A stretch of DNA of 64,000 nt from a virus (IMGVR_UViG_3300001869_000005:33973-97972); one strand, 5' to 3'. Shown: positions 17,521 to 43,494, numbered from the stretch's first letter. Translations and numbers: made by a program. The notes: generated from the sequence alone by a model not told the origin.

Positions 17521-20500
17521 TTAATTCACTTTCAAGAACACCAATGCTTGATCTGGATTAAACACCTTATACAAGGTTCTATTCATTGGAACTGTTTCTA
17601 ACCAGAATTTCTCACCTTTATACATTCCTTTATATCTGCCACTCTAAATTTTATCCCCATAGTTAAAGATATTAAACACTTCTAAGACTCTCTGTACATA
17701 ATCACTTGCCGCAGCAGGAGATTTAACAATAGTCATTAACTACTTAGGTAATAACCAAGTAGGAGTCATAGCGCCAATTTCAGTCTATAAACGCCTCAAT
17801 TCATACTCAGCAAAGTGACTAAACCATGTATCTTCATCTGGCCATTCAACTAATCCAAGAGATAGGGTCAACAATGCAAATGTACCAAGTTCAGTAAAAG
17901 CTCGTTTAATATTACTCTTTTCTAATTTAGATAATTTGCCCCATTCCTCGCTTACAAGTGCAAACTAGAAACCTTTTAAATCTTTAGCAAATGATGCCAT
18001 AAAATTATAAAATGATCTATAATATCCTTCTGTCCAATCTCCTGCCTAATAGTTATATTGGGCTTTACCAGCCCTTCTATTCCAAGCCGCTGGCATCCAC
18101 TTTCTAAACATATAAACTAGTCGCATGATAGCATACTTCTAGCTCATATTCATGTCTTGCTTATTGTAGATTCCCTATAGTGATTGATTTACATATTTAA
18201 TTCTATTATAAATTTCGTCTCTATCTTTATTAGTGAATTCACTTCCGTCTAATTTGGTGTAACCCTTTTTAACAACTAATTTACCACCAAATTTTAAATC
18301 AGTTCCTTTAAATGGAACTACTTCCATTGCATCAATTAAATCTACTTCTTTTCCAGAAGAATCTTTCATTTTAATCTTACTCAACATTGCTAATCCAGAT
18401 ACACTAGACATCTAATGTTCACCAGCACGAGTAAGGAAGAAAAGAGTGCTTGTATTCATAAATCTTGCTAAACCCTTCTGATCCATCTATAATTCGTTGG
18501 CCCTACTTTCTGCATCCTGTGCAATATTGAAGTATTCTATTATAAGTGACAATTTATCTGTTTTAATTCTATTTCCAATATTTCCTAATAGACCCGGTAA
18601 CATCTATGTATATGTCTTATTTGCTTTAGCTAAATCCTTTATGTTGTAGTATTGACCAGAAACCGCTTCAATCATCATCATTACATTACCTGTAGCCATA
18701 TTGGAAGTACCAGCTAATGCATTCAATGCTAAATTATTAAGCGAGGTCATTCTATTTACAAAATCTGCAGTTTTACCTTTATCTATTTTACTATTTCCAA
18801 ATGTACCCTCATCTTCTTTGAATCTACCATAAATCTACATATCCATATAGTCATTGAACTTAGCAAGTGTATTAGAAGCACTCGACTACTTAGTCATTTT
18901 ATTACTAAATTCTCTACCATATCCTTGAATAGTCTACATAACAGGTTTACCGTTTTCAGTTATGTCTACAACTCGCCTTTTCATTACATCTCTGGTTAAT
19001 TCTAAAAGATGTATTGCTGAACTCATTTCATTAAATTCTACAGCCATACTTGCATATGCGGCTAATGAGGAAGTAGCATCTGTAGACAAGTCGTTCATAT
19101 TATCTAGTTTACTTACAAAATAGATTGGTAAAGTCATTACTTTATTACCTTCAAAATCTATAAGATTTGATTTATCCATTAACTATTCACCGCCAAATTC
19201 AATATCTTTTTCTCTCCTATAAAGTAAATCTTTGGCGCTTTCTGTAACTGTATTAAACGCCCCTTTTACAGATTTAGAACCTTTAATTCGTTCAATTAAA
19301 TCTCTACGAATCTATACAGCATTGTAATTGTTTCCAGACCCTTGTGGTAAGAATGAATCCAATTCTTTTTTAATGCGCATAAAATTATCATAATATTCTT
19401 TCTATGCAGCATTTAGTTTATTATATTTATCTGAAGCATATATACTTCTGTCGGGTAGACTATTTTCATCAACCGTTTCTGTATTAGCCTAATACCAATC
19501 ATATAAATCTTTCTATCTAGCTTCCCACTATTCTTGAGTAGGATGTAATCCATATTTAACATCAAGTCTTTTTCTCTCCGCATCTTTGGCCATTTCAAAG
19601 GCAGTATAATCTAATTCAGCAATGTATTTGCCAGTCAAATTACCATCCTTATCTCTATCATGCATAAAATCTGTGTTTTTGAATCCTTTAGATTCTAACA
19701 CTGCTTGCATTGATTGTAATTCTTTAATGTAATCTAATGTCCTTCTAATAGAATTCTATTTAAATGAATCAACACTGTGATTAAACAGCCTTAACATCTA
19801 ATCAGATGAATCGGCCATAGAGTCCATCCATCTGTCAAAGAAACCAATATCCTATGAGGAGTGGTCTAACAGTTCTTCTAAAGTAATAGTTTGTCCTTTT
19901 AACTTACCCATCTTCATTACTAAAGAGTCCCCTACAAAGGGTCTAAAAAAGTCTAATGCTAATGCATAACTAATATCCTTATACTATACATCTAATGCTA
20001 TACATAAGTCTGACAATTCTGATAAATTCCTCTTTAATTCATCTGGAAACTATTTAGTATCTTCCAAAGTATCTCTAGCAGCCTCATCTCTTAACTCTTT
20101 TACACTTTGACCATAAGATGCTGTAAAATTCTTAATAGTTCTTAACATACCCGCCATCTAATTTGTGGTTGTAGCACCACTAGTACCATCCTACATTTTA
20201 ACAAACGTAGCCTAATGAGACTTCAATTCAGTCGCAGCATTGGTAATAAACATATTTATACCATTGATAAATTGACCTTTTTCAATCTCATCATTTAATC
20301 CATTTATATAATCAGTGTTTAATTCCTCTACAATACCATGAATTTCCCTTTTTTCTGCAATCTTTTTCTATTTAATCTTATTCTAAATGATTGTAGTGAG
20401 AATTTCTTTCTATTTCTCCACCCTATCTTCTAGGGCAAATAATTTAGTTCTATTTCTCTATAGATTCTTTATATCAATCTAATCTGCAACTCTATTAGCT

Positions 20501-21552
20501 AGTATGTCTTGAGCAAATTCACCAACTTCTTGGTTAACCTACTCTATCGCTTTCTGTAAATCCTATTCTAAACCCTTCTTAGTTAATCCATTAAAGAATT
20601 GTTTAATTGCATCAAAAAACCTAGTCAATAAATTCTTATAAGGCACATTAGGAATCGACTCATTTTTAAGCCAATATTTAGATACTAACTATCCAAGTGC
20701 TTCTTTAGCTAACAAAAGACCGTCTCCTTTATACTATGCCTCATACGCACCATATGATTCACCCAGGATTTCCTAAACTACTCCTTCCTATCCAATAAGA
20801 TTTAAAAGTCTACTTACTATAGGATGATTCTATCCAAGTAATTCAATTATAGCATGCGCAAATTCTTCAGGAACTGCCTTTTCACCCCTATCATCTCTAC
20901 TTATTCTAATAACCTCTAGGAGCCCATCTACGGTCTTTTTAGCTGTTAAAGTATCCATAACACCATTAATACCCATCTATTCTTCTACTTCATTTAAAAA
21001 GCCATCTGAGATACCATAAGACTTGCCTAACTCTCTTAATCTTTTGTTTAAAGCTATATTAACATCCTATTCTTTTTCTAAATTCTATTGAGAATATAAA
21101 ATAGTAGCGTATGGATCATCTCTGCCTTCTACTATTTTTATATGACGTTTTCCATTAGCTGCTCTATTAGACTACATGTGGTAAGATAGAGATAAAGGAT
21201 TACTTGGGCTGTTAAACTTTTTTACAATTTCCCTAGCCATTTCCATAGTATAATTCTTTACCGCACCGTTTGAATTATATCTACCTTCCTAATGGTCTAG
21301 TTCATCTATATAAGATTCCTATGATTGTAACCCCATTAATACTTTAACTGGGCCAATTATAAATTCACCATTCTCATCAACCGGTAATACCTATTTATAT
21401 TCATCTATCTTTTCTGGATCAGTTAAACCTTTATATATTTGTGTCGCATTCTAATAGGTGGTAGATTGGAGCAAACCTCTATTTAGTTTGCTCTCAATCA
21501 CATTACCATTCCTATCAGTAATCGGCATCACTGTTATACACGAATTTGCCAT
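17521..21552 (-). CDS. giant virion cargo/ejection protein with zincin-like motif (code 15, ~1343 aa)
   Basis: fragments 18175, 18934, 19528 share one frame and end at TAG; start MANSCIT, stop TAA; PEEFAH at ~20854-20871. Confidence 0.8.
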
Positions 21553-21557
21553 ATTAA

Positions 21558-24500
21558 TTATTTAGTTTTACAAAATACTTGTCCATTCTCATCAGTAGGT
21601 TCATAAGTACTCTACATAATCTCTCTCTACATTTGTTTAAATTTTTCAGTAAAATTACCCTATTTATGTTCTACTACAGGAGGAGGAGTTTCATTTTCAA
21701 ATCCTTCCATAGGCATAGATTCTGGGCCTTCAACATCCTCATCTTCATATCCCTTGTATTTAGCATCAATTTGAGAAGTCATATCTTCCATATTTAATCC
21801 ATTTTGATACTCTAAGAACTTATTAGGTATTCCTATAGGATTATCTATAAGAGTGTATTGAGTTATATAGTAATCTCCTCCATCATCATTAACTAATTCG
21901 CTTGTTCCAATTACAGTATAATAGTATTCTACTCCATTTAATTTTTTCATAATTATCGGGAAATTAACCCCATCCCTAACCATTAATTGTCCATTGGTTT
22001 TTCCATCTGCAGAAGTACGAACATCAATAGTTTCATTTAGACTTTTTCCAACCAGAAATACAGAATCATTAATTTCATTCACTTCCGGTACAAACTTTCT
22101 CACATTTCTATGATTCATTAAGTATTGGTCTATAAACCCTCTATAAGCATCTTCTTTAGTAAACATCAAGTTCAATTTAATTAGCGTTCGTCTATATCCT
22201 GGAATTACTAATCTAATATTTACAGGGGCTAAATGAATAAAACTAGTTGGCCCAAATGCCAATCCATTTCTAAAGTAACTATATGCAAATAAATCCTTAG
22301 CTAATTTAGCACCTTCTTCACCCATAGAAAGTAACGAATCCCAATCTCTTGTTACAGTGTCTTTCTAATTAGGAGAAAGTGAGCCAACATTGTTAAAGGT
22401 AATTATTTTTTTATCTTTATCATCATTGATTACTGTTAAGCCTTTAATAAATGCTAATTCACCAAGTTCTTTATTGGATTTTTTTATCTTTTCAAATTCA
22501 TCTGGAAATTTATTAATGTAGTAATTCCTCTTCTATTCAGCTTCTTTAGCAGTTTTGCCACCAAAGAATTCTAACTCAGAAGTAATGTATACAAATAGAT
22601 CTGCATAAATCTATTTAACCTATTTAGCAGTTAAACTCCCTTTAGAGAATTCAGATCGTTTGGTTAAATTTTTAATCTAACTAACTACATATCTAAAAGA
22701 TTCTTGTGTGTATGGATAATATTGACTCAAAAGTAATTCTGCAGTTTCTAATCCAAGTGTATAATTAGCCTAAACTATTGGTAAAGGGCTACTATTAATT
22801 TTTTCTCTTAATTGATTAATATTTTCTTTTTTAGTAAAACTCTTATCTTTTAATATATTAGTTTTGATCAAATCTGCACTCTCAAGAGGAAAATTCTTAC
22901 TCTTACTTTCTATCATCAATTCTTTAACATCGTCAATCTTTAAATCTGTATCTGCTTGATGAGGCCCTGTAGATCCTCCAGTAGTATCACTACGCATAGA
23001 TGAAACTATACGTGAAAGTATCTACGACGGTTCATTTAAAGCCTTAAACGCATTAGCAATCTTTAATTGGAATACATAATACTATCTATGTTCAGTTGGA
23101 GTTAATTCTTTCCCTTTTGCTATGGCATTAGCATAAACAATTGCTGTAGCCATATCACTTTGAGATAATTCAGAATTCTTATAATCTTGTTCTTCTTTTG
23201 AATATTTAGTTTCACCAAAGAACTATTCAATTGTCTTTTTAACAGAATCTCTTTTACTTACTCCACTATCACTTAATAATTCATAATTGTCACTCATTTC
23301 AACCACAATAGGCTAAGACAAAAACAAACCAATTGTTCCATGAGTGTGGCCCTATCTAGCTAAAAACATTGCTAGATCTGCAGTAAACCCATTTAAATTT
23401 AAGTCACTCAATACAGGGTCTTTTACAGCATCTACAGAGGCTGCTACATACTCAGATGTGTTTCTACTAATATATTGTTTATGTTCATTTAGTATATCAT
23501 GCAGACTCAAATACTCCTTATTACCTAACTTAACACCAAATCCTTTTTTAATTGTTAGTTCGGTTCCCTGTATAACAGAATGATTTGCATTGTGATTTGC
23601 AAAAACACCAATTAGTGCTCCAGCAGTATGATTAGCTTTGTGGAAATTTGTCTAAGTAGAAGGACTAAGAGGATCTAATTGCTGTTTATACTTTTCAGAT
23701 CTTTCATCTAATTCCTTTAAACTTAAACTATTCAAGTACTTGGGAACATTTCCTTTAGATTCTACTAGTAGATTTCTATATTCTGCAAGAGAAATTCCCT
23801 TTAATACATTGATAACTCTAGCAGATTTCTTTAATCCATCAAAACCACCAGGATTAATCATATTTAATACAGTGTCAGCATTTGTAAGAATTCCCCACAT
23901 AGTATCAATGATTTCATTATTTCTGGCTTTTAATGTATTCTAATCAACTGATTTATTTACATCATATTTAACCTTTTCAATTATTTCTCCCAGAAGATAA
24001 TCTTTTTTGTTTTCTTGCCAAGTATTATAAATGTTACGTTCAGTACTATCTTCTGCATATACTTTACTACCATTTTCATCAACAACTTCTATATCCTTAA
24101 TATATGTGATTCCCTTAATTGTTTTAAACTATTCAGAGTTTACACTAGAATCTCCACCTAACTATTCTATTAACTCCTTAATAAATCCATTTCTATCATA
24201 TTTATTCCTGGTAGAAAATTCAGGAAGCATTATATATAATTTATCCACGTCAAAGTCAAGACCAGCTATTGTGGTAATTTCCTTAGGGAACATAATTGTA
24301 CTACCAGACTATTGTGGTAAAAAACCTTTAATATATAAAGGAAATATTGAATATTTATTCTCAGTTGGAATTCTATAACCAATTAATTTCCTTAATTCTT
24401 CTGGTAATACCTTCATAGGATCACCATTTTTATCCTTTAAATTTTTATGTACTGCATCTATATCTAGTTCACCTGTTTTTGGATCCATAAATTCCTTAAA

Positions 24501-27500
24501 ATACTTAGAAGAATACCAAGGCATATAGGTTTCAATGTATTCAATGTGTTTTTCATTTTTGTCATTAGTCCCCCATTTGATATTTAAATCATCTTGTACT
24601 CCAAATGATGTTACATGTACAAGAGAACCACCTTTAGTCTTCTATTTAGTAATCTCATTCTTAATTCCTGAATGCAATAGACTCTAAGTACGGTCTGAAT
24701 GAATCTAATCACTGTATGGAAGTGTAGGAAATCCATCTTCTGCAATTTCAAGAGCTTTAGCCATTTCTGGATTATATCTTTTATTGCCATTAACTTCCTT
24801 TTTTAATGTATTGTTGACGGCTTCTTTATCTCCCAATTCATCAACAGTCTTATAAAAAGAAGTTATTAGATTCTCAATATTTAGATCGTCAAAGTGTTTA
24901 CTAATCTCCGCTTTATTATATTTCTTTCCATTAACAATATAGTCAATCCCTTCTTTTAAATCACCTTTAATAAGTTTTTTAGCCTAAGTACCAATCCCCT
25001 AATTGGTATCCATGTAGTGACTAGGCACAGGTTGTACAAGAGCATAATCCTCGTAAGAAAGACTATGTACTACCTAAGGATTGTATCGTCCTACATTAGA
25101 GCTTATAGACTCCTGTAGGTATCCTTTAATTGCTTCTTTAGTAGTAAATTTATGCACATCTAACGCACCCTATCCTCCGACTTTTACAGCACTGGAAAAC
25201 TATACTACATCAATCTGATTCTCTTCCATAAATTCTTCAATAGCCGAAAGCTAAGGAGACTTTCTTAATATATTAGAAAAGATTAATAGGAATTCTGCAT
25301 TCTTATTTTGTATAGGAGTTTTAAGTGAATAATCCTAAGTAATCTTCCTTTTTTCATCTTTAACTAGTCCAGGATTAGCGATCTACGTATACATAAAAGG
25401 TTTTTTGGGTTGCCAAATTACATTGAAATCTTCAACATCAAATTTAACATCCTCACCTTTTTGCATCTTTTTAAGTTTATCAAAAACTCTCTGCATTTCA
25501 TCAGTCCACTAGCCAGACATATCCATAATTGCTCTATAGGAAGAAAGAGTTCTATATGCTTGAGCATCAGTTACTTCTACATTGTTATTACTATATTTAT
25601 CTAATATAAAATCTCTATCTTTTGCGGTAAGCATTTCTTTTTTGACAAATCCATTCAAAGCTTCTTTAATATCTTCTAAAGTATTTGAAACGGATTTAAA
25701 ATCCTTTAGAAATACTGTATTTTCAATATCTCTACCATATTCCGAAGTAGTGTCTAATCTTAATCCTGGAGTATGAATTTGTTTCATACGTTTCTATATA
25801 TCTCCCAGATTCTTGTAATAAGCTAAATCAGTAGTAGTGATCTACAACATCTATGATTGAGCATACCGTTGATTCCAGAAGTAATTTTTCAACTCCTTTT
25901 CAGCATTTTCTATACTACTAAGATTCTATAGATGTTTAAGAGTCTTTCCATCATCAGTCATTTTGAACAAACCGATCTTTCTATATCTTATTTTTTCCTG
26001 TTCATACAATGCATCTGTTTCATCCTTGATAATTTGTTTCAATTCTGTCCTGAATTCTTCCATAGTTTCAGGCATATCCTCATTTAATTTTTTATCAAAT
26101 AAAGGCATATAGTTGTTTAGGAATGGAAGAAATTGAAATTCTAAACCCCTTTTTTCAAAATTATCAATAGGGGCCATTAACCCCTTAGCAATTTGTTCTT
26201 GTCTATTTCTAACTATCTTAATTCTATCATATTCCTACATAGCTAAATCATAGAATCCATTTAAAAGAGTATTTTCCCAATCACCGCTAGTATCAGTTGT
26301 ATATTTATGAAACTTTACAAACTCTGCAGAAGGGGCATCAGCTAAAATAAATACTGGATACCACGCTACTTTATTATTAACATCTGAATAGTACTCATTA
26401 ATCATCATCATTGTGTGATCTAATGGGCTCAATTTAGAGTACTCCTTTTTATTGTAATTTAAATTAGTTTTATGTTGAATTAATTCTCTTGATTTAGGAT
26501 CTGTAACCAAATCTCTAATCCATGAGTTCCTATATTTTCCATTTGAATAAAACCAATTATACTATTTGTATTCCTTTTCAAAAAATGCCTATAACTCTTC
26601 CTCTGAATATTCCGTTCCCTTTAACTTATTCATTAAGTCTGCCATATATGAAGGAGCCGTATATGAGTAATAACTCTTCTAGTTCGCATATACAGAACTT
26701 TTCATCAATTGGGTTAAAGACCTTGATAAGATCTCTGCAATACTTTTATAATCACTTTTAAAGGTATTGGCAAAGTCTAAATGTACTGCCTTACTGTCAT
26801 TTAATTTAGTGGTAATTCTAGTAAGATTGTCCAATAATTTAACAAACATGTGATTAATATTCACAGTCATACCTTTTACATTGGGCACTTCTGGAATATA
26901 ATTTAATGCTTCTAAAAGACTGGTTACATCTGTATCTACTCCTACTGTAGCCAATACATCTCTTATCCTACCAATATTATCATTTACATATGCAGTAATC
27001 TCTTCAATGGGTTTACCTTTAATAGATTTAACCATCTCATCAATAGTAGCTCTAACTACTTCAAGATTATCCCGGTCAATATTACCAGCATCATCATATA
27101 ATGAATTAAAGGATAATAGAGTTTTACTTTCCATAGTAGCTCTCCATTCGTCCATAAGGTATCTAACTCCATCTGGTTTATTCAATTCTTTGGTCATATA
27201 TGTGTAAGATCCATCAGCCATTTTCTTTCGTATCTAAATCCAATAGGACATAAATACTTTTCTAAAATCCTGATAGAACACACTATGTAATTTCTAATCT
27301 TTCATTAAAGCACTTACAATACTATTAACCCAAGGTTTAGTATTAGCTAATCGTCTAAGTATAGGTAACATCTATCTGGAATTAGTCATACCACTCAATT
27401 GTTCAATTAGTATTCCATGAACTACTTCACTATCTAAATATACTGGCATATCTAAATCATCTAATGTTTCCGCTTTTTTAAAGTCTAATTTAGGAATTTG

Positions 27501-28502
27501 CATAAGTATCTTCCGAGTCTATTGACTTAATGCTTGTGTAGGATCAATGTGTTTATGTTTAATCATCCATCCATCCTTCACAGGATCATCGTCATTATCC
27601 TATATAACTCCTTCACCATCCTATAAGAGTGATTCAGGGATTTCTTCAGTCTCTAATCCTTTAAATATAGTTAGTTCATTATTAATAAACTTAACATCAA
27701 CTTTTTCATAATCCGCAAGTAATCTAGGAGTTTCTCTAGTAAGCAATTCAAAATTCTCAACCACTTTTTTAAATTCGCTCATCTAATAATCTGTAAATAT
27801 AACACTATTTGTGCTCTATTTGAGAAAGTAGTTCTTTACAAACTTATATATGTTTTCAACTCCATATTCATTGATAATTTCTTCTCGTGTAGAATTAGGT
27901 CTTAGTTTTGCTTGAATACCACTCACGTGTCTTATAAATTCTCTAGCAACTAGATTAACTCTATCAATTCGCATTTGTGGTCTATATACTTTATCTAATG
28001 CATTTGAAATGGTGATTTCTTTTATTTTAAAAATATCTTTGGCTGTCTATTCAATTTCTTTAACTTCATCTGTGTTTTCTATAGGAGTTTCAGTAGGAGT
28101 GGGTTGGATAGATTCAACAAGGGTAAATTCAATATCTTCATCTGGATTATTTTTAACTATATATATACCAGCACCTTGGCCCTAATAATTCTAAATAAAG
28201 ATCCTATCTCCTGTTTTAAGTCCATATTCATCCAGATCTAAAGCAGCATCTTGGTCTGTTGTAAAAGTAGGATAATTAGTTTCAATATTATTAGCAATCC
28301 CCAAATAATCCTTGAATTCTTCTTCTGTTGGATACGGTAATTCTTTTATTTTATTACTCAGATAGTCCGCTACAATCTATTTATCTAATGTTTTCTCTAG
28401 GTATGTACCTACATTATTAGCAGCAACAACAGGATCTAGTCCTGTTGCTTTTGCTAATTTTATAATTCTTTCATCTGGGATGAAACAAAATACTTTACTC
28501 AT
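21558..28502 (-). CDS. virion-packaged RNA polymerase (code 15, ~2314 aa)
   Basis: eight in-frame fragments joined across TAG; IGYRIPTE and AGLDFDVDKLY (24243-24257), the crAss RNAP catalytic DxDxD. Confidence 0.9.
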
Positions 28503-28508
28503 ATTTTA

Positions 28509-31500
28509 TTATTTTACACAGTTAATTGCATGTTCTTTTTGTTCTTGAGTTAAAGCGTCAAATGATTCGGGAGTAAACCCTTCTTTCATAAGAGGACCTT
28601 TTAAAAAACTTTCAAGATTTGCAAAGTTAGGTATTTTTTCTGACATTTCCTAATTTTTTGGAACATTTGTTTTACTATTTTTGAAATCAGTTGCTTTTTC
28701 ACCAAAACTACCCATTAAACTTGGATCTAAATCCAATTCAAAGTCGAGAAGAGGAGAAGAAGAAGTACTTTTAGAGGTTAATTCATCAATTTTTTCAACA
28801 GGAACATTCTGTTTATGAACATCTCCGTTTGTTTTATAGGCTAATGTGTTCACATTCAATATAGACCCATCTTGAACTTTCCACTCCTGTTCATTAATTT
28901 TATGATCTTGTATGAATGTGGGGCCAAATTTACCAGCAACACCATCTCTAATATAAGCTAAATCTACAATGGGTTTAATTTTAACCGCAGACATGATTAA
29001 ATTATTATCTTCGTCAACAACAAACCCATTATCTACAAAATATTTATCTCCTTTATAAGTTACTTCAGTTCCTTTAATCACACTCTCAGATTCAACTACT
29101 GGCTTGGGTTTTAAAGGAGTTGGTTTCTTATACAAAGTCTTATTAGTATCCAAACTAGGGGCTACAAAATCAATAGGAGTCCCTGATGGAGTTTTAGCCT
29201 ATAGATAGAACCACACACCCTTTACACCTGATTTGACCATAGCAGTCTTTAAAATGTTACTATCATAGATCTTCTCATTGTATCCAGGAGAATTAATCTA
29301 ACTTGCATCTACGTTGAATAGAATGTTATTCTTATACAAGGATTCATAAATCTAATCTTTGATAGAGTCAACATCATTTCTAACTAACTTCTTTGCAGGA
29401 TAGACCTTATTTGGGTTTTTATCTTGTTTAGTTAAATAAATCCTATCTGCTTTCTATAATTCTCTATATACACCATCTTCCCCTAAATCTTCCCGTCTAA
29501 TAATAAGGGTAGTTTTATCTTCACTTAAACCAATATGAATTGCCTATTTATTTTGACTAATACTCTAGCCATTCTCATCCTTTTTACTTTCGCCTAAGAA
29601 TAATGCTTTAGATAATTCATTGTATCCTTCAGTAGCATCTTCAGGTTGACGAGTATTTGCCAATATATCAACCGCTTTTTCAATCTATTGAAACATTGGG
29701 TTAGCCTATGTTGTTACATCTGCTCTGTTGAACTCCTCTTTATTAAAAGTTTTAATGGTTAAAGGAACAGACGCATAATTACCATCACCCATCAATTCGT
29801 GCATATAAACCATTCCTGGTTTTGTTGGAGGAATTATCTTATTTATACTAACATGTGGATGGTTAAAATAAAAGCTTAATCCCTTAGATGCAATAGAGAA
29901 TACTAATTTAGTTTTATCTACACCCTTTTTAGGATCATTTAAATCTGTATCATTACCTCTATCCTATTCAACATATCCACCATTGACCTAACCAACTACA
30001 CCTGTCTCAGTAATTTTACCTGTTTCAGCATATTCTTTTTCTATCCTGTCTCTAAGTTCTCTTAGACCCATAAATTCATCAACTCTTTTACCACCATGAA
30101 TGTTCCCAATAACTTGATTATCAGGCCCATGAGTAATAAATATGGCGTCTTTAAAAGGAGTTGCTTTACTTCTAAATTCAGGGTCTATCATATATCTCAC
30201 AGTATCCCCTTCTTTTACATTTCCAGCATTTAAGTAATCCCAAGTACCATGTTCCGTAAAGTAATCATATATAGGGCCTTGATGAGGAAATACTTCTTTC
30301 TATTTGATAAACTTACCCTTAGTTTTTTCATTAACTTCAAATTCGGGTACTTCATTATATAGATATTGTTTCTACTTGCCACTATTGGGTATATTAGGTT
30401 CAGAATTCTATTCTACAGGAGTTTTAGATTCTTCTTTAACAGTTGCACTAATAGAACCCGTGTTTGTCTATTGAGTTACTGGAGTTACATCTTTTCCTGG
30501 AGTTTCTATAACCTCTTCTGGAGTAGTTTCAGTGGGAATTAATCCTTCATTAGTTATTTTACCTACAGGAATTAAATCTTTATCTAACTATTCTGAATAA
30601 TCTTTCTAAACACGCGGCATCAGCTCTTTAAAAAGAGCCATAGCAGCAGTTGTTTCATCTGGCTTTAACATATTACCGGTAGATTTAAGAATAGTACCTT
30701 CAAACAATTCTCTAAATTTCTATTCCTAATCGGGACTAGTTATTTTAAATAAATCTTCTGGGGCATTAAGTTCTGGCATTAAACTTGTAATAGCCAATTT
30801 AACTCCTTCTTTAACCTCTTTTGATACCGGTGATTTCTCTACTTTACCCTAAAAATTAATAATGTTTGAACTTAAATTCTTATGCTATTTAGCAAAAGTA
30901 TTCCCAGCAACAACCATTTGATTGTTGAAATCTCTAGCATCGGCTTCTTTTTCAAAATTAGTATTTAAAAAATCTTTATACTCTTCATATGTAGTGAATT
31001 TATCGGCTATATCCTTTTTATCTTTTATTTCAGCATTATCAACTTTAACCTATTCTTTTTTAGATTCAGCAACTACTTTCTACTAATCCTATTTTAATCT
31101 TTCAGGATTTTGAATGTATCCATTATATCTCTCTAGGAATGAAACTCTAGCAGCTGATAATCTTTGGAGATCATTTATTTGACTAATTATTTCATCACTA
31201 TTTTTAAGTATAGACTCATTCTTTTTAACTTCTTGTTTAAGTCGTTCTAATTTACCCAATACTTGCGGTAAACCCCTTTTATCTTCTTTATTATCTAATT
31301 GAACTTCTTGATTAATAACCCTTCCTGTAGCAGTTTTGAGTTTATCTAATTGTTTACTTCGTGTTTTATCTATCTATTTAGCTAACTTAGAACCTTCATC
31401 CTACAAAGCAGCCAACAGATCTCCTGGAGATTGATTTAAAACCTCATCAATAGGAGATTCTACTTCATCTGCGTCAATATATACTCCACCATTTAATTGT

Positions 31501-33656
31501 TTAACAATGGGATTTAAATTAGTCCGCAAATCTTCATGAACTTGGTGAAATCTCTTTTCCCAATTGTCTACTTTACTAATCATCCAAACTAGTTCAGATA
31601 AATCATCTCCTTTAAATGTATCTCCAGACTTAATTGCTAAATTGTCAGCAATCTGTCTATAGTTATCTACAGTTGTTTTATCAGTCTCTGCTTGCTGTTT
31701 AAAATATTCTCTTAATTCCTTGTCAGTTTTATTTTGATAAGGCAATTCTTTTTTTGTATCAGACAATAAATCCTATCTAATCCCAGCAATATCTTCATCA
31801 CTAAGATTCTTCATACCATCTATGTGGTCATACAAATCTTGTATTCTACCACTTTTGTCAAATAAGATGGCATCACTAATAAGTTCAGAATGTTCTGCAT
31901 TCTTAAATTCAAATTCGTCTTTATTGTCTAATGCAGTTTCTTTATCTGCTTCAAAACTAATTCGTCTATTATTTGCTTTATAGTATTCCTGGAATTTAGG
32001 ATCTTGTAGTCTTTCATTTAACGCTGTAGCAAGCTATTGATCTTCTTGATACTTTTCATTTAATTCTCTTACTTCACCAATAGATCCATTCCATACAATA
32101 GGATGAGTTGCTTTACCATTCTTGTCAATACTTACTGATCCGCCTCTCATAGGAATACCTATCATCCCCATAAAACCACCAACAAAGCCATCTTGCCAAC
32201 CAGCCATAGTACCATACTCTTGTTTAGCACCTTGACCAATTGCATTTAACCAACTAATAGATTCTTTATTGGCATTTGGGTCAATCTAATGACCCATAAA
32301 ACTATTTAATTCTGCACCATAGTATTGTTGAAGAGTATTAGATATAGTCGATTGACCCATTTCTTCATAAACACCCTCAGTTAAAATAGGTTTAGTAACT
32401 GCCCATGCTTTTTTAAGTATGGAGGGCTTCACCACTTTAACTGATTTAGTTAATCCATTTTCTACAACATCATCAATTATATTTTTAGTTCTACTAGCAT
32501 TTTTAAATCCACCAGCATAACTTCTACCAAACTAAATATAATCAGATATGGTTAGTAAGGGTAAGTTAGTAAGAAAATCTCTATTGCCGTATTTAACCCT
32601 CTATTCTTCTATCTTGGCTAAACCATCTTCGTATCTTTGTTCAATACGTTGATTTAAAGTATTCTAACCCTCTTGAGTTAAATTACCATTTTTATCAAAT
32701 GCTTCTGGAGATTCATCAGTAAGTTTTTTAAATTCATCTTCCTCTAATTGAGGGATTGCTTGGTTTAACTATTGAGTTAATCCTTCAGCAAACTATGTTG
32801 AATTATTTACAGCCTCTAATCTGGCTTCACCTAAAGCTCCTGCAGTAGCACCAATTATTTTTAATTTCTAATTAGCGCTCCTTAATGTTTTAGCTGCTTT
32901 AAATGCATCTTCTGCAATTGCAGCACCATCTATAGTTGCATCACCAGTAGCAACCATTTTAAGTTTTTCAGCTAAATTAGCGGCTTTTTTACCATCTTGT
33001 GCAATTACAGAATAACCTTCATACAATTTCCTAGCCTCACCAAGTTTCATAAGCCCTTCAGCAGCTCCTGCTACGACCTTACCACTTAAAGCAGCACCAA
33101 CCATAAACCCAGTATTCTTTAATAGGGTATCACCAATAAAATTAGCAGTAAATATATTTTTATACCATTCACCATTTTCATTGTTTTTAGTTTCTTCCTA
33201 TGTATAATAATTGGGTAATAACTTTTCAAGATTATTATTCCATGCATTAAACCCCTGAGTTACGGGATTATCCCATAATCCAGAAAACTTACCTGTACTG
33301 GCAGCAGTTGCTATTCCAGCAATAGTTCCTAAAAAAGTATCTGCAAAAGTAGTAGCAGCAAGTGAGGTGCCTTTAATAACTCCTGCCCCTATTTTGTCAT
33401 ACCAAGGCTATTGTTCTGCTCTTAAATAATCAACATTTTCATCTATAACTCTTGAGGGAGTTATATTTTCATCATATTTAGAATTTTCTTGGACATACTA
33501 ACCCAAATTAGTTTCTTCTGGAGCGCCTAATAAAGAATTATGCGTTCCTAAATTAATATGATTACTTGTTTGAGCAAGAGTATACATTTTATCGGCTAAA
33601 CTTGGGGTCATATTTATAGACCCCTCGCCTGCCTTTAATCCTTTTAATCCTTTCAT
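28509..33656 (-). CDS. giant virion cargo/ejection protein (code 15, ~1715 aa)
   Basis: fragments 28650, 29988, 31401, 32868 in one frame; start MKGLKGLK, stop TAA; syntenic with crAss cargo genes. Confidence 0.8.
28622..28653 (-). promoter_or_regulatory. possible Bacteroidota sigma-A promoter upstream of RNAP gene
   Basis: TTAG-N20-TAACTTTG; lies inside coding sequence. Confidence 0.35.
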
Positions 33657-33678: not shown

Positions 33679-35688
33679 TCATTCAGTTCCTTTCTTTTTT
33701 GGTACCCCCTAAAATAAAGAAGATGTTTCAGATAATAATTGTGTAGATAAATTATTTAGACTTGTTCCTCTGACTCTCCCAGCTTGTGTGGTCTCATCAT
33801 CTAAGGAACTTGTATATGTTCTGACCTAACTTGGGTCACTCATATCATATACAATCTTAGCATAATCAAATGAACCATCGGGATTAACTTCTTTAACCAC
33901 GACACCATAAGAATAATTATCAATTCTTGTACCATACTTCTTTATATTTTCTGGATCAGATATGGCTTTTTCAAAATCTTTATTAGTTACCTATAAGACC
34001 TTTTTAGAATCAATATCTTTTGATTCATAACCACTTAAATACTTGCTTACTGAACTAATATGGTTACTGACTTTTCTGATAGGTGTTATACCTGTTGCAG
34101 TATATCTATCTTCTCCATTGGTTAAGACTAAACCTTTATCTCTATTCATACCTATTACAGTATTGTACTAACCATCTGAATTTTTATTAAATAATTTATC
34201 GGCTTGTTTTCGGCTTAACTCTGAACCTTCTGGTTCTCCTTGGGAATTTAATTTATAGATTCCAGTTTTATCACCAAGTTGTTTAGAGAAATTACTTATA
34301 CCTTCTAATACAGATTGATCTCCTCCTTGTAAGTTTAGAGGTATAACCACAGCAGTCTCTAATGATTTGGCTTTTTCCAAAGCATATCCTTGGTTAACTG
34401 TATTTTCAAAATCTCCACCAAGATGTTTATATTTATTGTAAATGCTTGTTATCTACGAAGCGTCTGAATCTCGCTATTTAACTAGATCCTATCTTTCTTT
34501 TTTCATTGCTGTTAAAGCCGTCTATAAATAATTTGCAGGATTTCTATTACCTTGTTCACCAGTATTAGCCTTTTTAATTCTTTCTTCCATATTTTTAATG
34601 TTATTGTCTACATTTTGAACAGATTTATTTATCTTTAAAATACTATCATTGATAAACCCTTTGTCTGTTTTTTTAAATCCCTACATTGGCTTTTCTAATG
34701 CGTTAACAACATCCTAATTATTATTTTTCCAACCCGTGTCTACACCGGAATAATTTTGAGTGTTTTTATTCCCACCCGCACCTTCTGCCTTTATTCTAGC
34801 AATAGCTAATTGTTCTTTATCTTTACCTTGTTGCCACTTAAATTGTTCAACTCTCTAATTATAATCTCTATTGGATTCTGCAGATATGAAATTACCATTA
34901 TGTTGTATCTCATTCTTAGTGTCACCAATTCCCGCATATAATCCTTGAATTATATCACTTCTCTGTTGATTCTTATCCACATTACCCCATTTATTTGAAG
35001 GCAACGCTTCCATTGCTTGATTAATTAATGCTTCTACTCTCGCAGATGATTTACCATTTGCTGCGTCTATAAGTTCCTATTGAGTTAATCCTGTAGAAGT
35101 CTTACGTTCAATTAATTGACCTCCCGCTGTAGTTTCCCACTTGCTTTTATTATTTTCCTGTTTAGCAAGAGTCTAAGCCATTTTAGCAGAATTAGCAATA
35201 CGGCTTGCTTGAGTTTCATATTGTGGAGTAATGTTAGGATTCTTTATAATTTCATCTAAAGAGATGTTCTATAAATCCGGTCTATCTGAATATAATGCAG
35301 AACCAGACATCATTGCCTATTGTCTTAACTTTGTATCCTAATCAATTAATTGTTTCCTCTAAGCATAAGCCTATTCAATAGGTACAATTTCCTTACCATA
35401 TCTCTATTTAAGCTATAATAACTATTGTCTATTAGTAGCATTCAAACCATTTTTCCCTAAAGAATTAGCCTGTGCCTATACATCATTAGCATATTTTTCA
35501 TATGCCGCATGAGTTAGTGGATCAGTACTTTGATTAGTCAATCCTTCCCAAATACTTGATTTATTAGATAAATCCTCTAAACCTGCTTCCTATTCCTTAT
35601 AGGCTTGACCATACATCATATAAGGTCTTATAAGTTCTTCAAATGAATATGGTTTAAATTTAGCCCCTATTGTTAGATAATTTCCCAT
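33679..35688 (-). CDS. virion cargo protein (crAss001 gp46-like, code 15, ~669 aa)
   Basis: start MGNYLTIGAKFKPYSFEELIRP, in frame with fragment 34168, ends TGA. Confidence 0.75.
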
Positions 35689-35689
35689 A

Positions 35690-37522
35690 TTATTTCTTCT
35701 TAGTATTTAATTTACCATCCATTGCTTTTTTAGTTGGTAGTGTACCAAATAGTCCTAGACTAGCCAAATATGCAATCATGTTTTTATCAATCTTTTCTTT
35801 ACCGAAATCTCCCAGACCTTCTACAAAATTATTAAGGTTGTTCATCTTAGCTCCTCTGGATTCTTGTCTAGCAGCAGCTTTCATTTGTGCTTTAGTCATA
35901 ATTGAGTTTTCTTTCATTCGAGTATTAATACCCTATTCCCAATTACTCTATTGTGCATTAAATTGATTAGTTCCCCTATTAAAATCAGCAGCCTGCATCT
36001 TTTGTGCCTAATTATATTCAGCGGCCTATCTACCCAATTTACCAAGACCTTCATTGTAAGAAGCATCTGCTCCTAATAGTCCGGCCATATAGGTAGCTCT
36101 ATTTCCCCCAGATAAATTCCTCATACTAGATCTTGTAGACGCTGCATTAGCGCCTAATTGATTAGTTAAGTAATTAGTATCTAAAGGTTTATAATTTACA
36201 TAGTCTCCTAATTTTTGACCACTAACACTTAAACTATCTAATCCTTGTAAATCTTTTACTGCAGAATAATCCGGTCGATTGGTTACTCCTAAAACATCAG
36301 TTAGACTTGCTAATCCAGATGCGGCAAGTGGAGCATATCTAAATAGATTATCTTGGTTTAAACCGTTAGATCCTTGAGTCTATTGAACACTCTGTTGAGC
36401 GCTTTGGTTTAATAAAGGTAAATCTCCTTTATTTGCAGTTAAATATGTATTAGCGTTATATACAGTGTTTGGGTCAAATCCAAACGGTTTTGTTTGAAAT
36501 TGATTTCTATCATTAAAAGGCAAAATAACTCCTGGATTAGTAATTTGTAAATTTGCTAAATTCTAATTAATTAACCCTCTTCCAAATAAACCACTAGGCG
36601 GGGTTCCAAAAGCAAAACTATTACTATTCTATTTATTCTACGCCTATTTTAGTATTTCCTAAGCCTGTTGTAACTTACCCATACTATCTTTTAAACCATT
36701 TTTACTTATAGGATCATTAGGTCTTTCAGAAGATTCTTTAGCATTCTTTTTAGCCTGTTCTGCAAATGTATTGTCTTTATCAACTCTTAATCTATTACTA
36801 AAAATATAATCTTTGAATTTGTATTCTCCTTCTTCTACAAGATTAGGTTTACCATTCTGCCCCATTCCCATAGGTACCCCACCAAGAGGATTCTATTCGT
36901 GAATACCTCCAGCATTAATCTCTATGCCTCCATTACCAAATTCACCACCATGTGTGGCTTGATTGGGTAAATTTGAGTATAAGTTTCCACCTTGGTCATA
37001 GAGTTTGCCTCCACCTGCCAATGATTGTGCTAATGAATTATTAAAATTATTCTAACCAATAGTATCTATTTGAGTATTAAATGCTTGTGTCTATTGATTT
37101 CTTAACAATCGTTCTTGTTCTTTCTTCTTATTATTTCCAAATATAGAAGTAAGTCCTCCAGATAAACCTCCCAATACACCCCCTATTGCAGCACCCCAAG
37201 GACCAAATGCCATTCCAGCACTTGCTCCTGAAGCTGCCCCACTCAATGCAGATCCTCCTGTATTAGTCTTTTGGATTTCTACAGGAGTATAATTCTGCAT
37301 CTAAGTCATTAACTGTTCATTAGTAGAAGCAGTTATTGGTTGATTCTATACTTGTGGCACATTAAGATTATTTATACCTTGTCCTAAAAGAGAACCTATA
37401 CCTCCTACAGCACCACTAATTGCTCCACTCCTTTGAGAAGTATTCATTGTTTTCCAACTACCTCCTAAATCAAAAAAATTATAATCTTTTGATTTTCTTA
37501 TATTTTTCTTTTTTGTTGTCAT
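35690..37522 (-). CDS. virion cargo protein with glycine-zipper helices (crAss001 gp45-like, code 15, ~610 aa)
   Basis: fragments 35690, 36659, 37091 in frame; GASAGMAFGPWGAAIGG zipper; GGIHE*NPLGGVP..NLVEEGE. Confidence 0.8.
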
Positions 37523-37608: not shown

Positions 37609-40600
37609 TTATACATTATAATATATGTTTATATCATGTAGTACAGTTTCTAAGTTATTAGTACCATCTGATTCTAATTTCATATAGGCCCAATTTCCTC
37701 TAAGTCTATCTAATCCAGCGGGATGCACATTTAAAGGTTGCATAGGATCACCACCATTAGCAACTAAATAATTATTACTTGTTACTCTGGGTATAGGACT
37801 TCTCCAAGCTCTAAACTTTTCTTTTAAATTAGAAGGTATACCATTATTTACCACGAAAGTATGATTTCCTGATTGATATTCATTCCAAACACTTAATTTA
37901 GTAAAGTCTACAACTCTTTGTAAAGTTCTAGCAGGATTTCCTCCTATAGGACTATTATCCCAACTATCTGCTCTAAATTCAATCGTATTAAATACTTTAT
38001 TTAAAGTTGGGTTAGGATTCACAATTAAAGTTGTATAAAATGGACTTGCTGTAGTATTATCATAAAACTAATTATAATTTCCAGTATTATGTTTCCATAA
38101 TTTTGTAACTGTATTGTTTATGTCTCTTCTAATAGAATATAATGAATCCCACATATTTACTATGTAAGGAGTCTTTTCATAATTAAAAAAGGAAGTGAAC
38201 TATCCTATTAATTCAGAAAAACACAAGGCTGTTGTTTCACCAACAAAATAAACATCTTTGTTTACTTTATCATAATGTCCTGTAAAGTTCTTATAATCTT
38301 TTGGATTCCAAGAAAGTAACTCTGTAAAATTAGTTCTACTCCAAGATCTAAATCCAAGTTTATCTGATAAGTTGATTATCTAATCACTAATAAGATTAAT
38401 TGATTTATTTATATCGTCTATAAAGTATAATCCATTGGGTGTTTCAACAATACTATATTTATTTGATGTTCCTATATTAGATGATACATATCTTACACCA
38501 TCTACCTAACCACTATTTGCAAATTCAATCGGGAATCCATCAGATGCGTTTACCTATACTCTACTATTGTACAGTAACTTAAATATACCTTTATCCTAAA
38601 ATCCCACTAATTCATTATTGAATGATCTAATTGCTCTTATGGGGCCATATTTCCCATTAGCATCAAATGTATTAATCATATCAATATTAGTCCAAGTATC
38701 TGTCAATTCACCTGCAATTTTTTTAGCAGTCCAAGTGAATGTATTTGGAAAAGTATCTAAAGAAAATAATTCATAATTTAATCCCCTATAGATAAAGTAA
38801 TTATCTTTTTGACTATAAATAGGATTTAATAGATTTGTATTTAAAGGAGTAATGAATCTATTGTCCACCTTACCCCTATTGTTATCGGTTCTTGCATCTA
38901 GATTGATTCTAGTTTCACACAAGAACGATACTATTTCAGTCATGGTCTAGACATCATCTATACTATATGGGTAAGTTCTAATACAATCATATCTCTGTAT
39001 ATAGGTATCCCCAGCAGTGTAATTAATGGTCAAAGTTGTCAAAGCACTGTTATTAGCATCTACTAACGACACAACCTCTCCACCAACTTCCCAGGAGTTT
39101 GATTCAAAAGCGGATTCACTTTTACCCCCAAATATTGTATTGATATTAACAGTTCTAGTTAATTCTCCCAACCATACTCCGCCACCTAATATATTAGTAT
39201 TTGCCACAGTAATATCTGACTATTCTATACTTTCAGTACAACCCTCTTTATAAAATAATTCACCCGCAACTGCTTTATTTACACCATTTAATGCAGGTAA
39301 AATTACTTGTGTACCATTTGACTGCCAATTAAAATTAATAACAGCGTGTGGCGCAGATTTGTATTTCATGGCCACATTGTCTTGATATAGATTTGGTGTC
39401 CAAACCATTAATCCTGTTTGTGTATTACTCTAATAAGTAGATGTATTATTTGTTGGATAAGCGGCAAATTTATAAAAACCAACAATACCACCAATTGTGG
39501 GTAAAATTATTTTATTAATATTAGCCTAATAGTTATAATCTTCTAATCCTGAATGAGCCGGAGACTCTAAACTTATTACAACTTCTTCATTAGACGTAAA
39601 TAATTTAGGAACAGCAATTCCCTCTGTAAATGTGAAGGGGTTTACAAGATATGTATTTGCTGCAGAAAATCTTAAATTAGAGGTGTGCTTAGACGTCATT
39701 ATAGGGGCACCCGTTTGAGTAATAGGACTATTATTGAAAGGTCTTGTGGCCTACCAGGGAAACACAACAAAATTAGCATATGGAGTATTTCCTCCATTAT
39801 ACATACCATCATACCACATAGGAGTGGCTGCACAAACATTTATTCCTTTTGTTGCACTTATATTGAATTGTTTAATAGAAGGATTTACAAATCCTATACA
39901 TCCCGGATCAACAGCGTCTGTAGGTGTTACACTTGTATTAGATATAAATCCCGTCAAATGTGTCAATCCTACAATATTTAAATTTAAATCATCCAATCGC
40001 ATATTCCATAAACTTTCATCAAATTCTATTTCAGGTGAATTAAATGTAACTGTACTCGAATCCACTATAAACGCATCTGAATATTTCTCTATTAATGCGG
40101 TTTTTGTAGCTCTCGTTGGATCGGCATTATTTGTTGGCGCAATATACGGTGTTAATGGATAACTTATAGAATTATACACAGGATTACTGTGGCGAAAATT
40201 CTCAATTTCAGCACCTCTCGACAATGTATCATCTGGATATACCAAAGCTGGATTTACACCTGATATACTCCTATTATGTCTAAACTCCACAAAACCTCCC
40301 TCAAGACTAGCGTGAACATCATCTCCAAAATCACTTACTAAAGTAGTTGGTACCATTGGTCTTAAAAACCACGAAGACATTGCTGATGGGGAATTAGTGG
40401 CCCTATCCCCAATCTAATAAACTGTAGGATTTAATATTCCTTGAGCAACAACTCTTCGTTCTGTTAAAGATGGGTATACAATTAATCCTCTTGCTTTAAC
40501 ATAACCTGCGGATACTAACGTACTTATTAATGTATAATCATTTAATATATAACTTGCTTTAGATCCACTTATAGCAATATTAAAATTACTTCCACTTGTT

Positions 40601-42270
40601 ACTTTAGTTGTAGTTGGTTGAACTGTATTGTATGCATCTGAAATCCAAATCGCTTCAGACCACTTGCCAGTTTCGTGTTGGAACTAAATACCAAATCTAT
40701 ACCATTCACCACACTTTAGTGTCTTAGCATCAAAATCACTGTGGTCAAGTGTTCTAGAAGGTTCATATGGGTAGTGTGATGTGTTATTTAATATGGTTGT
40801 TTCCATACTAGAAACTAATGCCTTTGTAGAAAAAGTAATAGAATTAATATTGTTTACTTCTAATATATCCTTAACCGTAGAATTATTTACTACTAAACTT
40901 CCAGCAGTATCCACCACCAATTGTATATTACCTAAGAAAAGGGTATTATCTTTTTGACTAATTGTTTCGGCAACAATCTTTTCACTACCCGTATATAACA
41001 ATCCGGTAGAAGTCTGAGTCTCCCCTATACTGTTTGTATCTATAAATGTACTCTAAGAAGTTATTATAGATGTGGGGTAAGTTCCAAATATTAAATCTCC
41101 AACAATATTGTCTAAAATTACTTGGTGATATACTAATATTTCAGTTTTGGTTGTTCCATCAAAGTAGATTAATTCAATTGTCTCTCCTAAAGACTAGTCA
41201 TTATCTATTGATATAAAGGTTGTTCCATCATGCACTGTAGTAGTTATAGGAGAAGTATATTTAACCCATCCATTTGTAATACTAATTGGGACTCCAGTAG
41301 GGTCTAAATTTGGCGTACCTTCTACTGTTACATAAGTGTTTATATTCAAATCAAAATTTCCCTATATCCATATTGTTTCATTGGGTGCAAATATATGTGT
41401 AAAAATATCTTCAACTGGGATTGGTTCAAATTCTGAAAAATTTATATTCTTTACTGCAAGATCCTATACTTTTCTAATTACAGGTGTACTATTAATACTT
41501 GTTCTTATAATAGAATAAATTCTAACATAATTAAATGTATCATCTAAATTATCTAAACTTATATTAAAAGAATTCTCTACAGTAGAATCTGCAGTCTATC
41601 CTGTAACATCATTGGATAAGTAATACAAAGGAGAAGTATAGAATATATTAGTTTCTACCCCATATTTATTTACATATGAAAAAGCATATTGAATTACCCC
41701 AGCAGGAAAAGTTCCACCAGAATTATTTTTAGTAATACTTACAGTTTCTTTTAATTCTAAAGTTGGAGTATAATCAAAAGATTTATAAGTAAATGTATCT
41801 GTAGATTTAATATTAATAAATCTCATTTGATTTTTTCCATCTGTCCAATATACTTTCTATATATTTTCATTTTCATAAAAAGGAATTGTTTCTATTGGGT
41901 GAGTAACATCAAAATTTAAATTTCCTTCAAATAATTTATCAACAGCTAAAGTATTAGGCGTTGTAGTATTAGTAAGACTATATATTCTATCGTAACCTAT
42001 ATTAGAACCATTTGTGGCATTCTAAGTTGTAAATAGTACCAGAGTATCATTCATTACACAATATCCGATAGGATAGCCTAAAATAGAAGTCTCTCCAGTT
42101 GTTGTTATTCCCTAAGTACCTCTTTCATTAGAGAGACTTAAAAAAGTATTACTATCTTTAGCAGTAATACGCATATTCATATTTTCAAAGGCAAACTTAG
42201 AATCAAAGGCTGATTCAGAAGTATCCCTCTACATTCCTATTGTTTTATAATTTGCTACTTGTATTGCCAT
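37609..42270 (-). CDS. tail muzzle / stabilisation protein (P22 gp10-like, crAss001 gp44-like; code 15, ~1553 aa)
   Basis: seven fragments in one frame; start ..GM*RDTSESAF..FENMNMRITA, YWTDG, GVIQYAFSY, C-terminal RLRG.WAYMKL. Confidence 0.85.
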
Positions 42271-42272
42271 AA

Positions 42273-42947
42273 TTATATTCTTTTACCTAATTCTCTAAAC
42301 CCCCGTTGATATTCATGTTTTCTTATAAGCATAGAAGAATACATATTATAGAATGATTCAGCCGTATCTAAATTGAGTCGATTGAATTCTGCTTGACAAT
42401 CACCGGCTGCAAAAGAATATTCTTGCTGGGTATTCTACAATACTCCAGGACTAATCTTACCCAAATCAAATAGAATAGTAAACCAACTCTTCTTTACAAA
42501 CAATTCTAATGCTCTAGTAAAACTACTGTTGTCTGGCAAAAGTGGATAACCTTCTTCGTCTGTAGAAATTGCTCTATAGGATAATTCTATAGTTCCTTCT
42601 TTTACAGTTGTGTAGAGAAGTGTTCCTTGAATCTTATAGGTTAAATCAGTGACTTCTTCAAGTTGATCACTCATATGGAAACTATCGGTGGATAGTCTAA
42701 ACATAAACATACCTTCTTCATTAATAAATCTAATTTGATTTATTTGATAGAAGTCGTCTGGTAAACTTGCTCTATAGTCTACAAGAGTTAATGTTGTTAC
42801 CTTTTCTTCAAACATAGAAGGAGTTCCCATCAATCGCATGAAGTTAACCGTCATATCTATAACCTACTCTAACGTAATGTCTTGTAACAAAGGATGCTGC
42901 ATTATACGATCCATTGTTGTTCTTATTGATGTTTGTTGATTAACCAT
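42273..42947 (-). CDS. tail ring protein (crAss001 gp43-like; code 15, 224 aa)
   Basis: MDRIMQHPLLQDITLE*; YRASLPDDFY, DEEGYPLLPD. Confidence 0.8.
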
Positions 42948-42951
42948 GTTT

Positions 42952-43494
42952 TTAATATTTATATAACAAAAAGGCGTCAATTAAACCCTCTTGTATGTTG
43001 TATTTTAATTTCTTTTTTAAATCTCTTGTTAGAGTGAACTTATAAAAACTTTTATTTTCGTAAGTTGCTCTATATTTAATATAGACCGCTTTATATAATT
43101 CCTTTGTTTCGTGTCTTAAAATAGTTTTATTTTCTCTGGCCTCCGCGTCCTCATACCAAAGTTTTAAAGTTTCATTCCAATTAATATGATATGATATACG
43201 TAATTTACCATCTTTTATTCTAGCAGAAGCAGGTCGTTTTAATACTTGTAAAGAACCCATTCTTTCTGGTAGTACAACTTGTTCTCCAATTAATAACGAT
43301 TCTCCTATTTTTTTATTAACCGCTCTAATTATTTGATAATATTGAGTTGATTCTAAAACCTCCTATTTTTTTGAATGGCAAAGTTTCATATAATATCTAT
43401 ACGCCTACTAAGCACCATATGAATGAGTAATCTTATATACTCTGGGTTCACTTACTTTTTTAATTTTTTTTATAAAATCTTCACAACTTTCCAT
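42952..43494 (-). CDS. IHF/HU-like basic protein of the crAss tail block (code 15, 180 aa)
   Basis: VVLPERMGSL, INWNETLKLW; tandem TAG TAG at 43405-43410. Confidence 0.65.

Follow-up and report, generated by a model that had tools for sequence, protein, structure and literature searches.

How crassviruses, the most abundant human gut phages, load a set of five cargo proteins amounting to more than 0.8 MDa in defined amounts, and how they deliver it, is the question raised by a 64,000-nucleotide stretch of viral DNA (IMGVR_UViG_3300001869_000005:33973-97972; "the window" is this whole stretch throughout). Read in the standard code, 17.5-33.7 kb of the window holds only short open reading frames (ORFs); read with TAG as a sense codon (table 15), it resolves into three adjacent giant genes on the minus strand, separated by 6 and 5 nucleotides, which are here called A, RNAP (for RNA polymerase) and C:

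28509..33656, minus strand: gene A, first giant cargo protein, 1715 residues; homolog of crAss001 gp47 and phi14:2 g067, matched end to end by the Steigviridae A-family hidden Markov model (HMM)
21558..28502, minus strand: RNAP gene, virion-type RNA polymerase, 2314 residues; identified by phmmer to PDB 6VR4 and by tblastn to crassvirus RNAPs
17521..21552, minus strand: gene C, third giant cargo protein, 1343 residues; homolog of crAss001 gp49 and phi14:2 g065

The three products are probably packaged in the virion and ejected, as judged from their homologs in phi14:2 and crAss001, which were detected in virions by mass spectrometry (MS; phi14:2 preprint; PMC10172136). The trio was translated with code 15, and its TAG codons (39 in A, 51 in RNAP and 47 in C) were assumed to encode Gln, the alignment to standard-code homologs being too divergent to identify the residue. 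Across 31 TAG positions within residues 1-700 of C, the corresponding columns of standard-code homologs are polar and hold Cys in 0 of 310 cells. The translations point to an answer in which cysteines at the facing ends of the three proteins would tie them, head to tail, into a single chain.

The 5372 residues of A, RNAP and C contain five Cys, four of them within six residues of the termini that meet at the A|RNAP and RNAP|C junctions:

28518..28520, minus strand: TGT codon of A C1713, the sole Cys of A, third residue from the C-terminus
28485..28487, minus strand: codon of RNAP C6, which with C2311 makes up all the Cys of RNAP
21570..21572, minus strand: codon of RNAP C2311, fourth residue from the C-terminus
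21538..21540, minus strand: codon of C5 of protein C
20002..20004, minus strand: codon of C517 of protein C, internal and outside the junction rule

Neither free end, the N-terminus of A or the C-terminus of C, has a Cys. The original prediction, drawn from this DNA alone, had placed Cys at these same five positions, had described the two outer ends as Cys-free and, from a sample of about 1550 residues, had reported a near-absence of Cys elsewhere. The full code-15 translations agree with it to the nucleotide and extend the near-absence to the entire trio, C517 being the sole non-junction Cys. This residue is kept in the closest relatives only (C515 in L005, C512 in L006 and C517 in P0005).

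The count is still five when all five cargo proteins are included (6651 residues, 0.075%), compared with mostly about 1-2.4% Cys in the early plus-strand proteins of the window, a depletion of the kind that marks ejection proteins. Of all neighbouring genes on the same strand of the window, those at these two junctions alone bring a C-terminal Cys to face an N-terminal one. The random chance that five Cys would cover all four six-residue junction windows is ~2e-10, and that they would cover any four of the six termini ~3e-9; both figures are post hoc, so that replication in other lineages is the real test.

Conservation was assessed in 79 IMG/VR loci fetched with the C-family alignment, together with GenBank relatives, and the pattern was found without exception in the intact Steigviridae-like loci checked, with identities as low as 25%. 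A carries a Cys 1-3 residues from its C-terminus in 76 of 77 loci, the exception (L010) being a truncated ORF. RNAP carries one at position 3-7 in 77/77 loci and another 0-8 residues from its end in 80/80, and Cys5 of protein C is found in 81/81. These Cys are mostly alone in their proteins, since A has a single Cys in 63 of 67 full-length proteins and C in 76 of 80; among the database matches listed for C, Cys5 is present in 120 of 120 homologs and is the sole Cys (in ~1345 residues) in 111. At 25% identity the rule still applies in Mahstovirus, Kolpuevirus and Pamirivirus, and it is present in Mahlunavirus as well. The phi14:2 trio has four Cys in 5398 residues, each of them at a junction terminus: g067 ends on one, g066 has them at residues 3 and 2179/2180, and g065 at residue 3. 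A count of Cys in full translations and in Crassvirales homologs had been put forward as a check by the original prediction, and it shows the terminal Cys to be conserved across the order.

The rule is likewise kept in Kehishuvirus-type genomes, in which A is encoded on the other strand and runs convergent to C instead of preceding RNAP, and both TGT and TGC serve as junction Cys codons. An artefact of the nucleotides at the gene junctions, or of translational coupling, is therefore rejected.

In other families the same functions are carried by two genes instead of three. Intestiviridae (crAss002, Rudgehvirus and 75 IMG/VR loci) encode one protein of 4.1-4.7 thousand residues that consists of RNAP followed by C, as mapped by blastp. 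The N-terminus of this giant reads M-x(1-3)-C, and the protein encoded just before it, a homolog of A according to an HMM search (E 3.5e-7), ends in C-x in 75 of 75 loci. The free C-terminus of the giant is Cys-free, its last Cys lying 69 or more residues from the end, and no Cys was found near the fused RNAP-C junction of crAss002 and Rudgehvirus. A first A-family HMM built from Intestiviridae was contaminated by one RNAP fragment (L100), and its match to crAss002 gp33 was disregarded; the results of the Steigviridae A HMM stand.

Suoliviridae encode one protein of 4.5-5.8 thousand residues whose second half contains RNAP. Immediately ahead of the RNAP part, these giants match the Steigviridae A-family HMM (E 1e-14 to 1e-17), indicating a collinear fusion of A and RNAP. 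Neither the N-terminus nor the surroundings of the inferred A-RNAP junction hold a Cys in the three giants that were mapped; a Cys is found near the C-terminus, usually 1-10 residues from the end, and the giant is followed by a C homolog with a Cys at residue 3-6 in 24 of 24 IMG/VR loci and in eight GenBank genomes. Flavobacterium phage FpV4 is the most extreme: the RNAP is part of a single giant, gp32, whose 4287 residues include one Cys, at 4286, and MAC opens the protein that follows; gp32 was not matched by the A HMM, and its A-like N-terminal half is assigned by position only. Every free A-RNAP-C junction carries a facing Cys pair, the mapped fused junctions carry none, and the outer ends never carry one, as expected if a Cys pair stands in for a peptide bond in joining neighbours.

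Two observations concern the annotation and domain content of these relatives. The annotated start of crAss002 gp33 (L088 17088-17190) lies 32 codons upstream of a conserved "MSC", which in most close relatives contains the first Met of the ORF, and is therefore probably mis-annotated as too early. Residues ~42-242 of a Suoliviridae C homolog (cr115 gp53) show 27-46% identity to many viral contigs that are not crassvirus-like (L191-L240), and may represent a widespread N-terminal domain.

From these comparisons we lean towards a reading in which disulfide staples join A, RNAP and C head to tail into a chain within the virion. The pairing itself is well supported by the comparative evidence, and the disulfide chemistry and the function are proposed. 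The original prediction had put forward a chain in gene order, through disulfide or metal links, and with it the plausible proposals of stoichiometric packaging, ordered ejection and reductive release; its pairing is strengthened by conservation at 25-40% identity whether or not the genes adjoin, by the presence of the Cys pair at free junctions and its absence from fused ones, and by a disulfide of the same geometry in the cyanopodophage Anabaena phage A-4L (A4). In the cryo-electron microscopy (cryo-EM) structure of the A4 pre-ejectosome, the C-terminal helix of gp27 is inserted in gp26 and a Cys1715-Cys5 disulfide links the two (PNAS 2025, PMC12002296).

The proposed mechanism would run as follows. 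The trio, probably ejected, has been purged of Cys, as other podophage ejection proteins are, apart from a single Cys, carried on a short tail, at every terminus that faces a neighbour. C1713 of A would bond to C6 of RNAP, and C2311 of RNAP to C5 of protein C, disulfides being the most likely form. The bonds would staple small terminal docking segments, giving a linear chain of ~610 kDa with 1:1:1 composition which, because its links run end to end, could still thread unfolded through the narrow channel of the tail. With other Cys generally removed, wrong cross-links would be avoided, and the reducing cytoplasm of the host would free the three proteins, such that the bonds may serve co-packaging, ordered ejection and reductive release.

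Structure prediction with AlphaFold2 (AF2) is consistent with tethered docking ends, the clearest of which is the end of A:

28512..28631, minus strand: C-terminal helical module of A, ~40 residues, with C1713 in the last helix (AF2 model)

In the model of the last 300 residues of A, the final 40 form a confident three-helix module (predicted local distance difference test score, pLDDT, 92-95) behind a low-confidence linker of more than 100 residues (residues 140-256 of the modelled 300, with pLDDT below 50), and the C-terminal consensus among A homologs is E-x-x-Q/H-A-I/V-x-C. C5 of protein C is predicted at the edge of the low-confidence residues 1-4, just before a confident beta-hairpin. 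Comparison of the four terminal 140-residue regions by hhalign revealed no homology beyond the first ~10 residues, and hence no shared docking module.

Several points weigh against the disulfide chain. Virions assemble in a reducing cytoplasm and the gut habitat of crassviruses is anoxic, so that an oxidation step is hard to place. Many of the loci counted above are close relatives, so that fewer independent lineages stand behind the pattern than the counts suggest. In 23 of 69 Intestiviridae fusion proteins a Cys falls within the broad central zone expected to contain the fused junction, some fused giants contain many internal Cys (up to 23), and the start codon of some Intestiviridae giants was itself picked by the M-x-C motif; in the Suoliviridae giant cr273 the last Cys lies 49 residues from the end. 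A and C showed no sequence similarity to A4 gp27 and gp26 in blastp, phmmer searches of the PDB or a search of the PDB with the C-family profile, and the A4 precedent is thus treated as an analogy rather than a case of homology. An AF2 model of residues 1-700 of C (predicted template modelling score, pTM, 0.33) gave generic helical matches only in Foldseek and VIA. The crAss001 study left gp47, gp49 and gp50 unresolved and says nothing of their Cys, and its reduced and non-reduced MS samples were single excised bands (PMC10172136).

The same head-to-tail pairing could be achieved through a bridging metal ion, such as Zn or Fe held by two or four thiolates and other ligands. The reducing cytoplasm at assembly and the anoxic gut that trouble an oxidation step would favour thiolate-metal bridges, and the exactly four terminal Cys of the window would suffice for one tetrahedral site. 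However, the families with a fused pair keep two terminal Cys, too few for a Cys4 site, and no conserved His or Cys adjoins the terminal Cys among the homologs compared. The A4 analogue, moreover, is a disulfide, and crAss001 virions contain disulfides. A metal bridge is accordingly given as an unlikely variant of the pairing.

Judged improbable to a like extent is that the terminal Cys bond other partners, forming homodimers or polymers, closing RNAP intramolecularly from N- to C-terminus, or anchoring the cargo to capsid, portal or cargo protein 1. The pairing of specific thiols rests on sequence comparison, and lone terminal Cys do occur, in crAss002 gp30, Rudgehvirus and FpV4 gp30, which lends such partners some credit. 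Homotypic or anchoring models, however, do not predict that both Cys vanish at a peptide-bonded junction while the other junction keeps both, as happens in two reciprocal fusion types. Neither cargo protein 1 nor cargo protein 2 of the window contains Cys, and the A4 pairing is heterotypic and in gene order. As an observation on the proteins at the position of cargo protein 1 themselves, four of them (L088 gp30, L243 g49, L089 gp30 and L090 gp50) carry one terminal Cys for which no facing partner is evident; this lone Cys stands in "RCGG" near the C-terminus in Intestiviridae (crAss002 gp30 and Rudgehvirus), and is Cys5 in FpV4 gp30 and Cys12 in cr115.

Least probable, and remotely so, is that the Cys form no cross-link and are instead sites of processing or modification, a zincin cysteine switch, remnants of polyprotein cleavage or of an intein, or redox or metal sensors acting after ejection. 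An HExxH motif does occur in relatives, ~200 residues short of the end of A or within the C homolog, and the phi14:2 preprint proposes a zincin-like protease and, for some phages, polyprotein cleavage, but roles of this kind leave the always-facing Cys pairs, and their absence from fused junctions, unexplained. A cysteine switch is excluded for the window because its A and C are without HExxH; cr106 A and phi14:2 g067 are also without the motif yet keep the Cys, as do relatives that have it. A split intein is rejected since Cys lying 3-7 residues from the N-terminus and 0-8 from the C-terminus are too close to the ends for intein halves, Pfam finds no intein and the terminal modules are non-homologous, and a lipobox is rejected since neither it nor a signal peptide precedes the N-terminal Cys.

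The distribution of the HExxH zincin motif varies among the relatives. It lies ~200 residues before the end of A in several genera (residue 2146 of cr128 A, L248; residue 1814 of crAss002 gp32, L088), is found in the A-derived part of Suoliviridae giants (residue 1854 of the cr10 giant, L087), and in phi14:2 sits instead in the C homolog (g065 residue 245, L241). None was found in A, RNAP or C of the window, and A of the window (1715 residues) is without that whole region.

The identity of the middle protein is supported by a match of RNAP residues 874-1560 to 6VR4_A (gp66 of Cellulophaga phage phi14:2, a two-barrel RNAP; phmmer E 2e-27) and by 35-40% identity to Bacteroides-phage RNAPs, including 38% to Kehishuvirus RNAPs (tblastn). 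It contains the DFDxD signature of the catalytic site:

24243..24257, minus strand: DFDVD catalytic motif, RNAP residues 1416-1420 (sequence motif)

In several relatives (L007, L009, L021, L047 and L070, and L086 at 18918-19759) the RNAP gene is split by ~0.9 kb just upstream of DFDxD, breaking off after "..LIGYR(V/I)" and resuming at "PLYIKGF". The corresponding gap in cr116 holds an endonuclease-like gene, and the RNAP gene of the window is uninterrupted at the equivalent site (24297-24386, residues 1373-1402). The gap in these relatives looks like an intron or a homing-endonuclease insertion site.

Two further cargo genes lie immediately upstream of the trio:

33679..35688, minus strand: homolog of Crassvirus cargo protein 2, 669 residues, Cys-free (Pfam PF25712, E 4.5e-59)
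35690..37522, minus strand: homolog of Crassvirus cargo protein 1, 610 residues, Cys-free (Pfam PF25725, E 1.5e-41)

With the muzzle protein (a phrog_28748 virion protein at 37609-42270) next to them, these genes and the trio reproduce the crAss001 gp44-gp50 block. PHROGs and Pfam detected no domains in A, RNAP or C; the RNAP match and the Pfam hits to cargo proteins 1 and 2 identify the block as a Steigviridae-like crAss cargo module (cargo protein 1, cargo protein 2, A/gp47, RNAP/gp50 and C/gp49). No tRNA gene was found inside the window. Elsewhere in the same genome, a virus record of 97,972 bp, a tRNA with anticodon CUA (an amber suppressor) lies beside a tRNA-Met (G000:C1:7785-7857; L250 1799-1874), in keeping with a recoded TAG in the late genes.

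Near-terminal Cys also occur in five other late minus-strand proteins of the window (42273-42980, 42952-43494, 53166-53498, 53514-53846 and 58636-60333), at most six residues from the N-terminus (C5, C4, C3, C6) or four from the C-terminus (C562 of 565). They exceed the expectation for Cys-poor late proteins, and the products of 42273-42980 and 42952-43494 are not conserved in Kehishuvirus tikkala. These Cys may be related to the tail disulfides of crAss001.

If the tether is real, its consequences would be simple. A conserved covalent link would provide 1:1:1 co-packaging, each protein being pulled through the tail after the previous one. Peptide bond and Cys pair would be interchangeable, which would explain why fusions and fissions of the block are tolerated across families. 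The rule also aids annotation, for example in correcting start codons, as for crAss002 gp33. A broader version, possible but still doubtful, would make end-to-end disulfide chaining a general podophage device that arose independently in Crassvirales, FpV4-like phages and A4; the crassvirus chain would then be a pseudo-polyprotein of ~0.6 MDa in fixed order, with a redox-gated RNAP kept inactive until its release in the cytoplasm.

The homologous trio is encoded in phi14:2 (g067-g066-g065) and crAss001 (gp47, gp50 and gp49), in the same block, behind the muzzle protein and cargo proteins 1 and 2, and with the same terminal Cys. The phage of the window differs from these two in reading TAG as Q in its late genes, in having a shorter A without the HExxH region and in having no internal Cys in RNAP. 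The phi14:2 preprint notes gene fusions and a zincin-like domain, proposes polyprotein cleavage in some phages and refers to a fully fused polyprotein, with cysteines not mentioned, and full-text literature searches returned no paper on terminal Cys in crassvirus cargo. Intermolecular disulfides are present in crAss001 virions, in tail and portal-vertex proteins, namely the tail hub and ring proteins and gp57 (Bayfield et al. 2023, PMC10172136). Like the staples proposed here they are Cys-Cys links between different structural proteins, but they belong to the external tail hub and ring and gp57, not to the internal cargo.

Cys depletion is shared with other ejection systems. The giant ejection proteins of Schitoviridae (N4 gp50 and DEV gp71-73), a virion RNAP among them, are Cys-free, which their authors ascribe to passage through the envelope (PMC11445570); T7 gp15 and gp16 have no Cys and gp14 a single one at residue 2 (L252). 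Conserved terminal Cys pairs are absent from N4, DEV and T7, whereas crassviruses keep exactly the junction Cys.

The A4 pre-ejectosome provides the known form of the arrangement. In the A-4L genome gp27 (1717 residues) lies immediately upstream of gp26 (1114 residues) in the same orientation, and each protein has one Cys. As in A4, a Cys of the upstream protein of the window stands a few residues from its C-terminus (A C1713, third from the end and the only one in A, and RNAP C2311 of 2314), and a Cys of the next protein at or near residue 5 (RNAP C6 and C5 of protein C; residues 3-7 and 5, respectively, in relatives); A also ends in a confidently modelled helical module. In A4 a single link joins two proteins of a pentameric core that has no RNA polymerase, whereas the window would have two links among three proteins with a virion RNAP at the centre; the A4 bond is seen by cryo-EM, and the crassvirus pairing is proposed from sequence comparison. 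The proposed staple is of the A4 head-to-tail kind by analogy; what is new here is that it would be doubled and flank a virion RNAP, with a Cys pattern conserved across an entire phage order.

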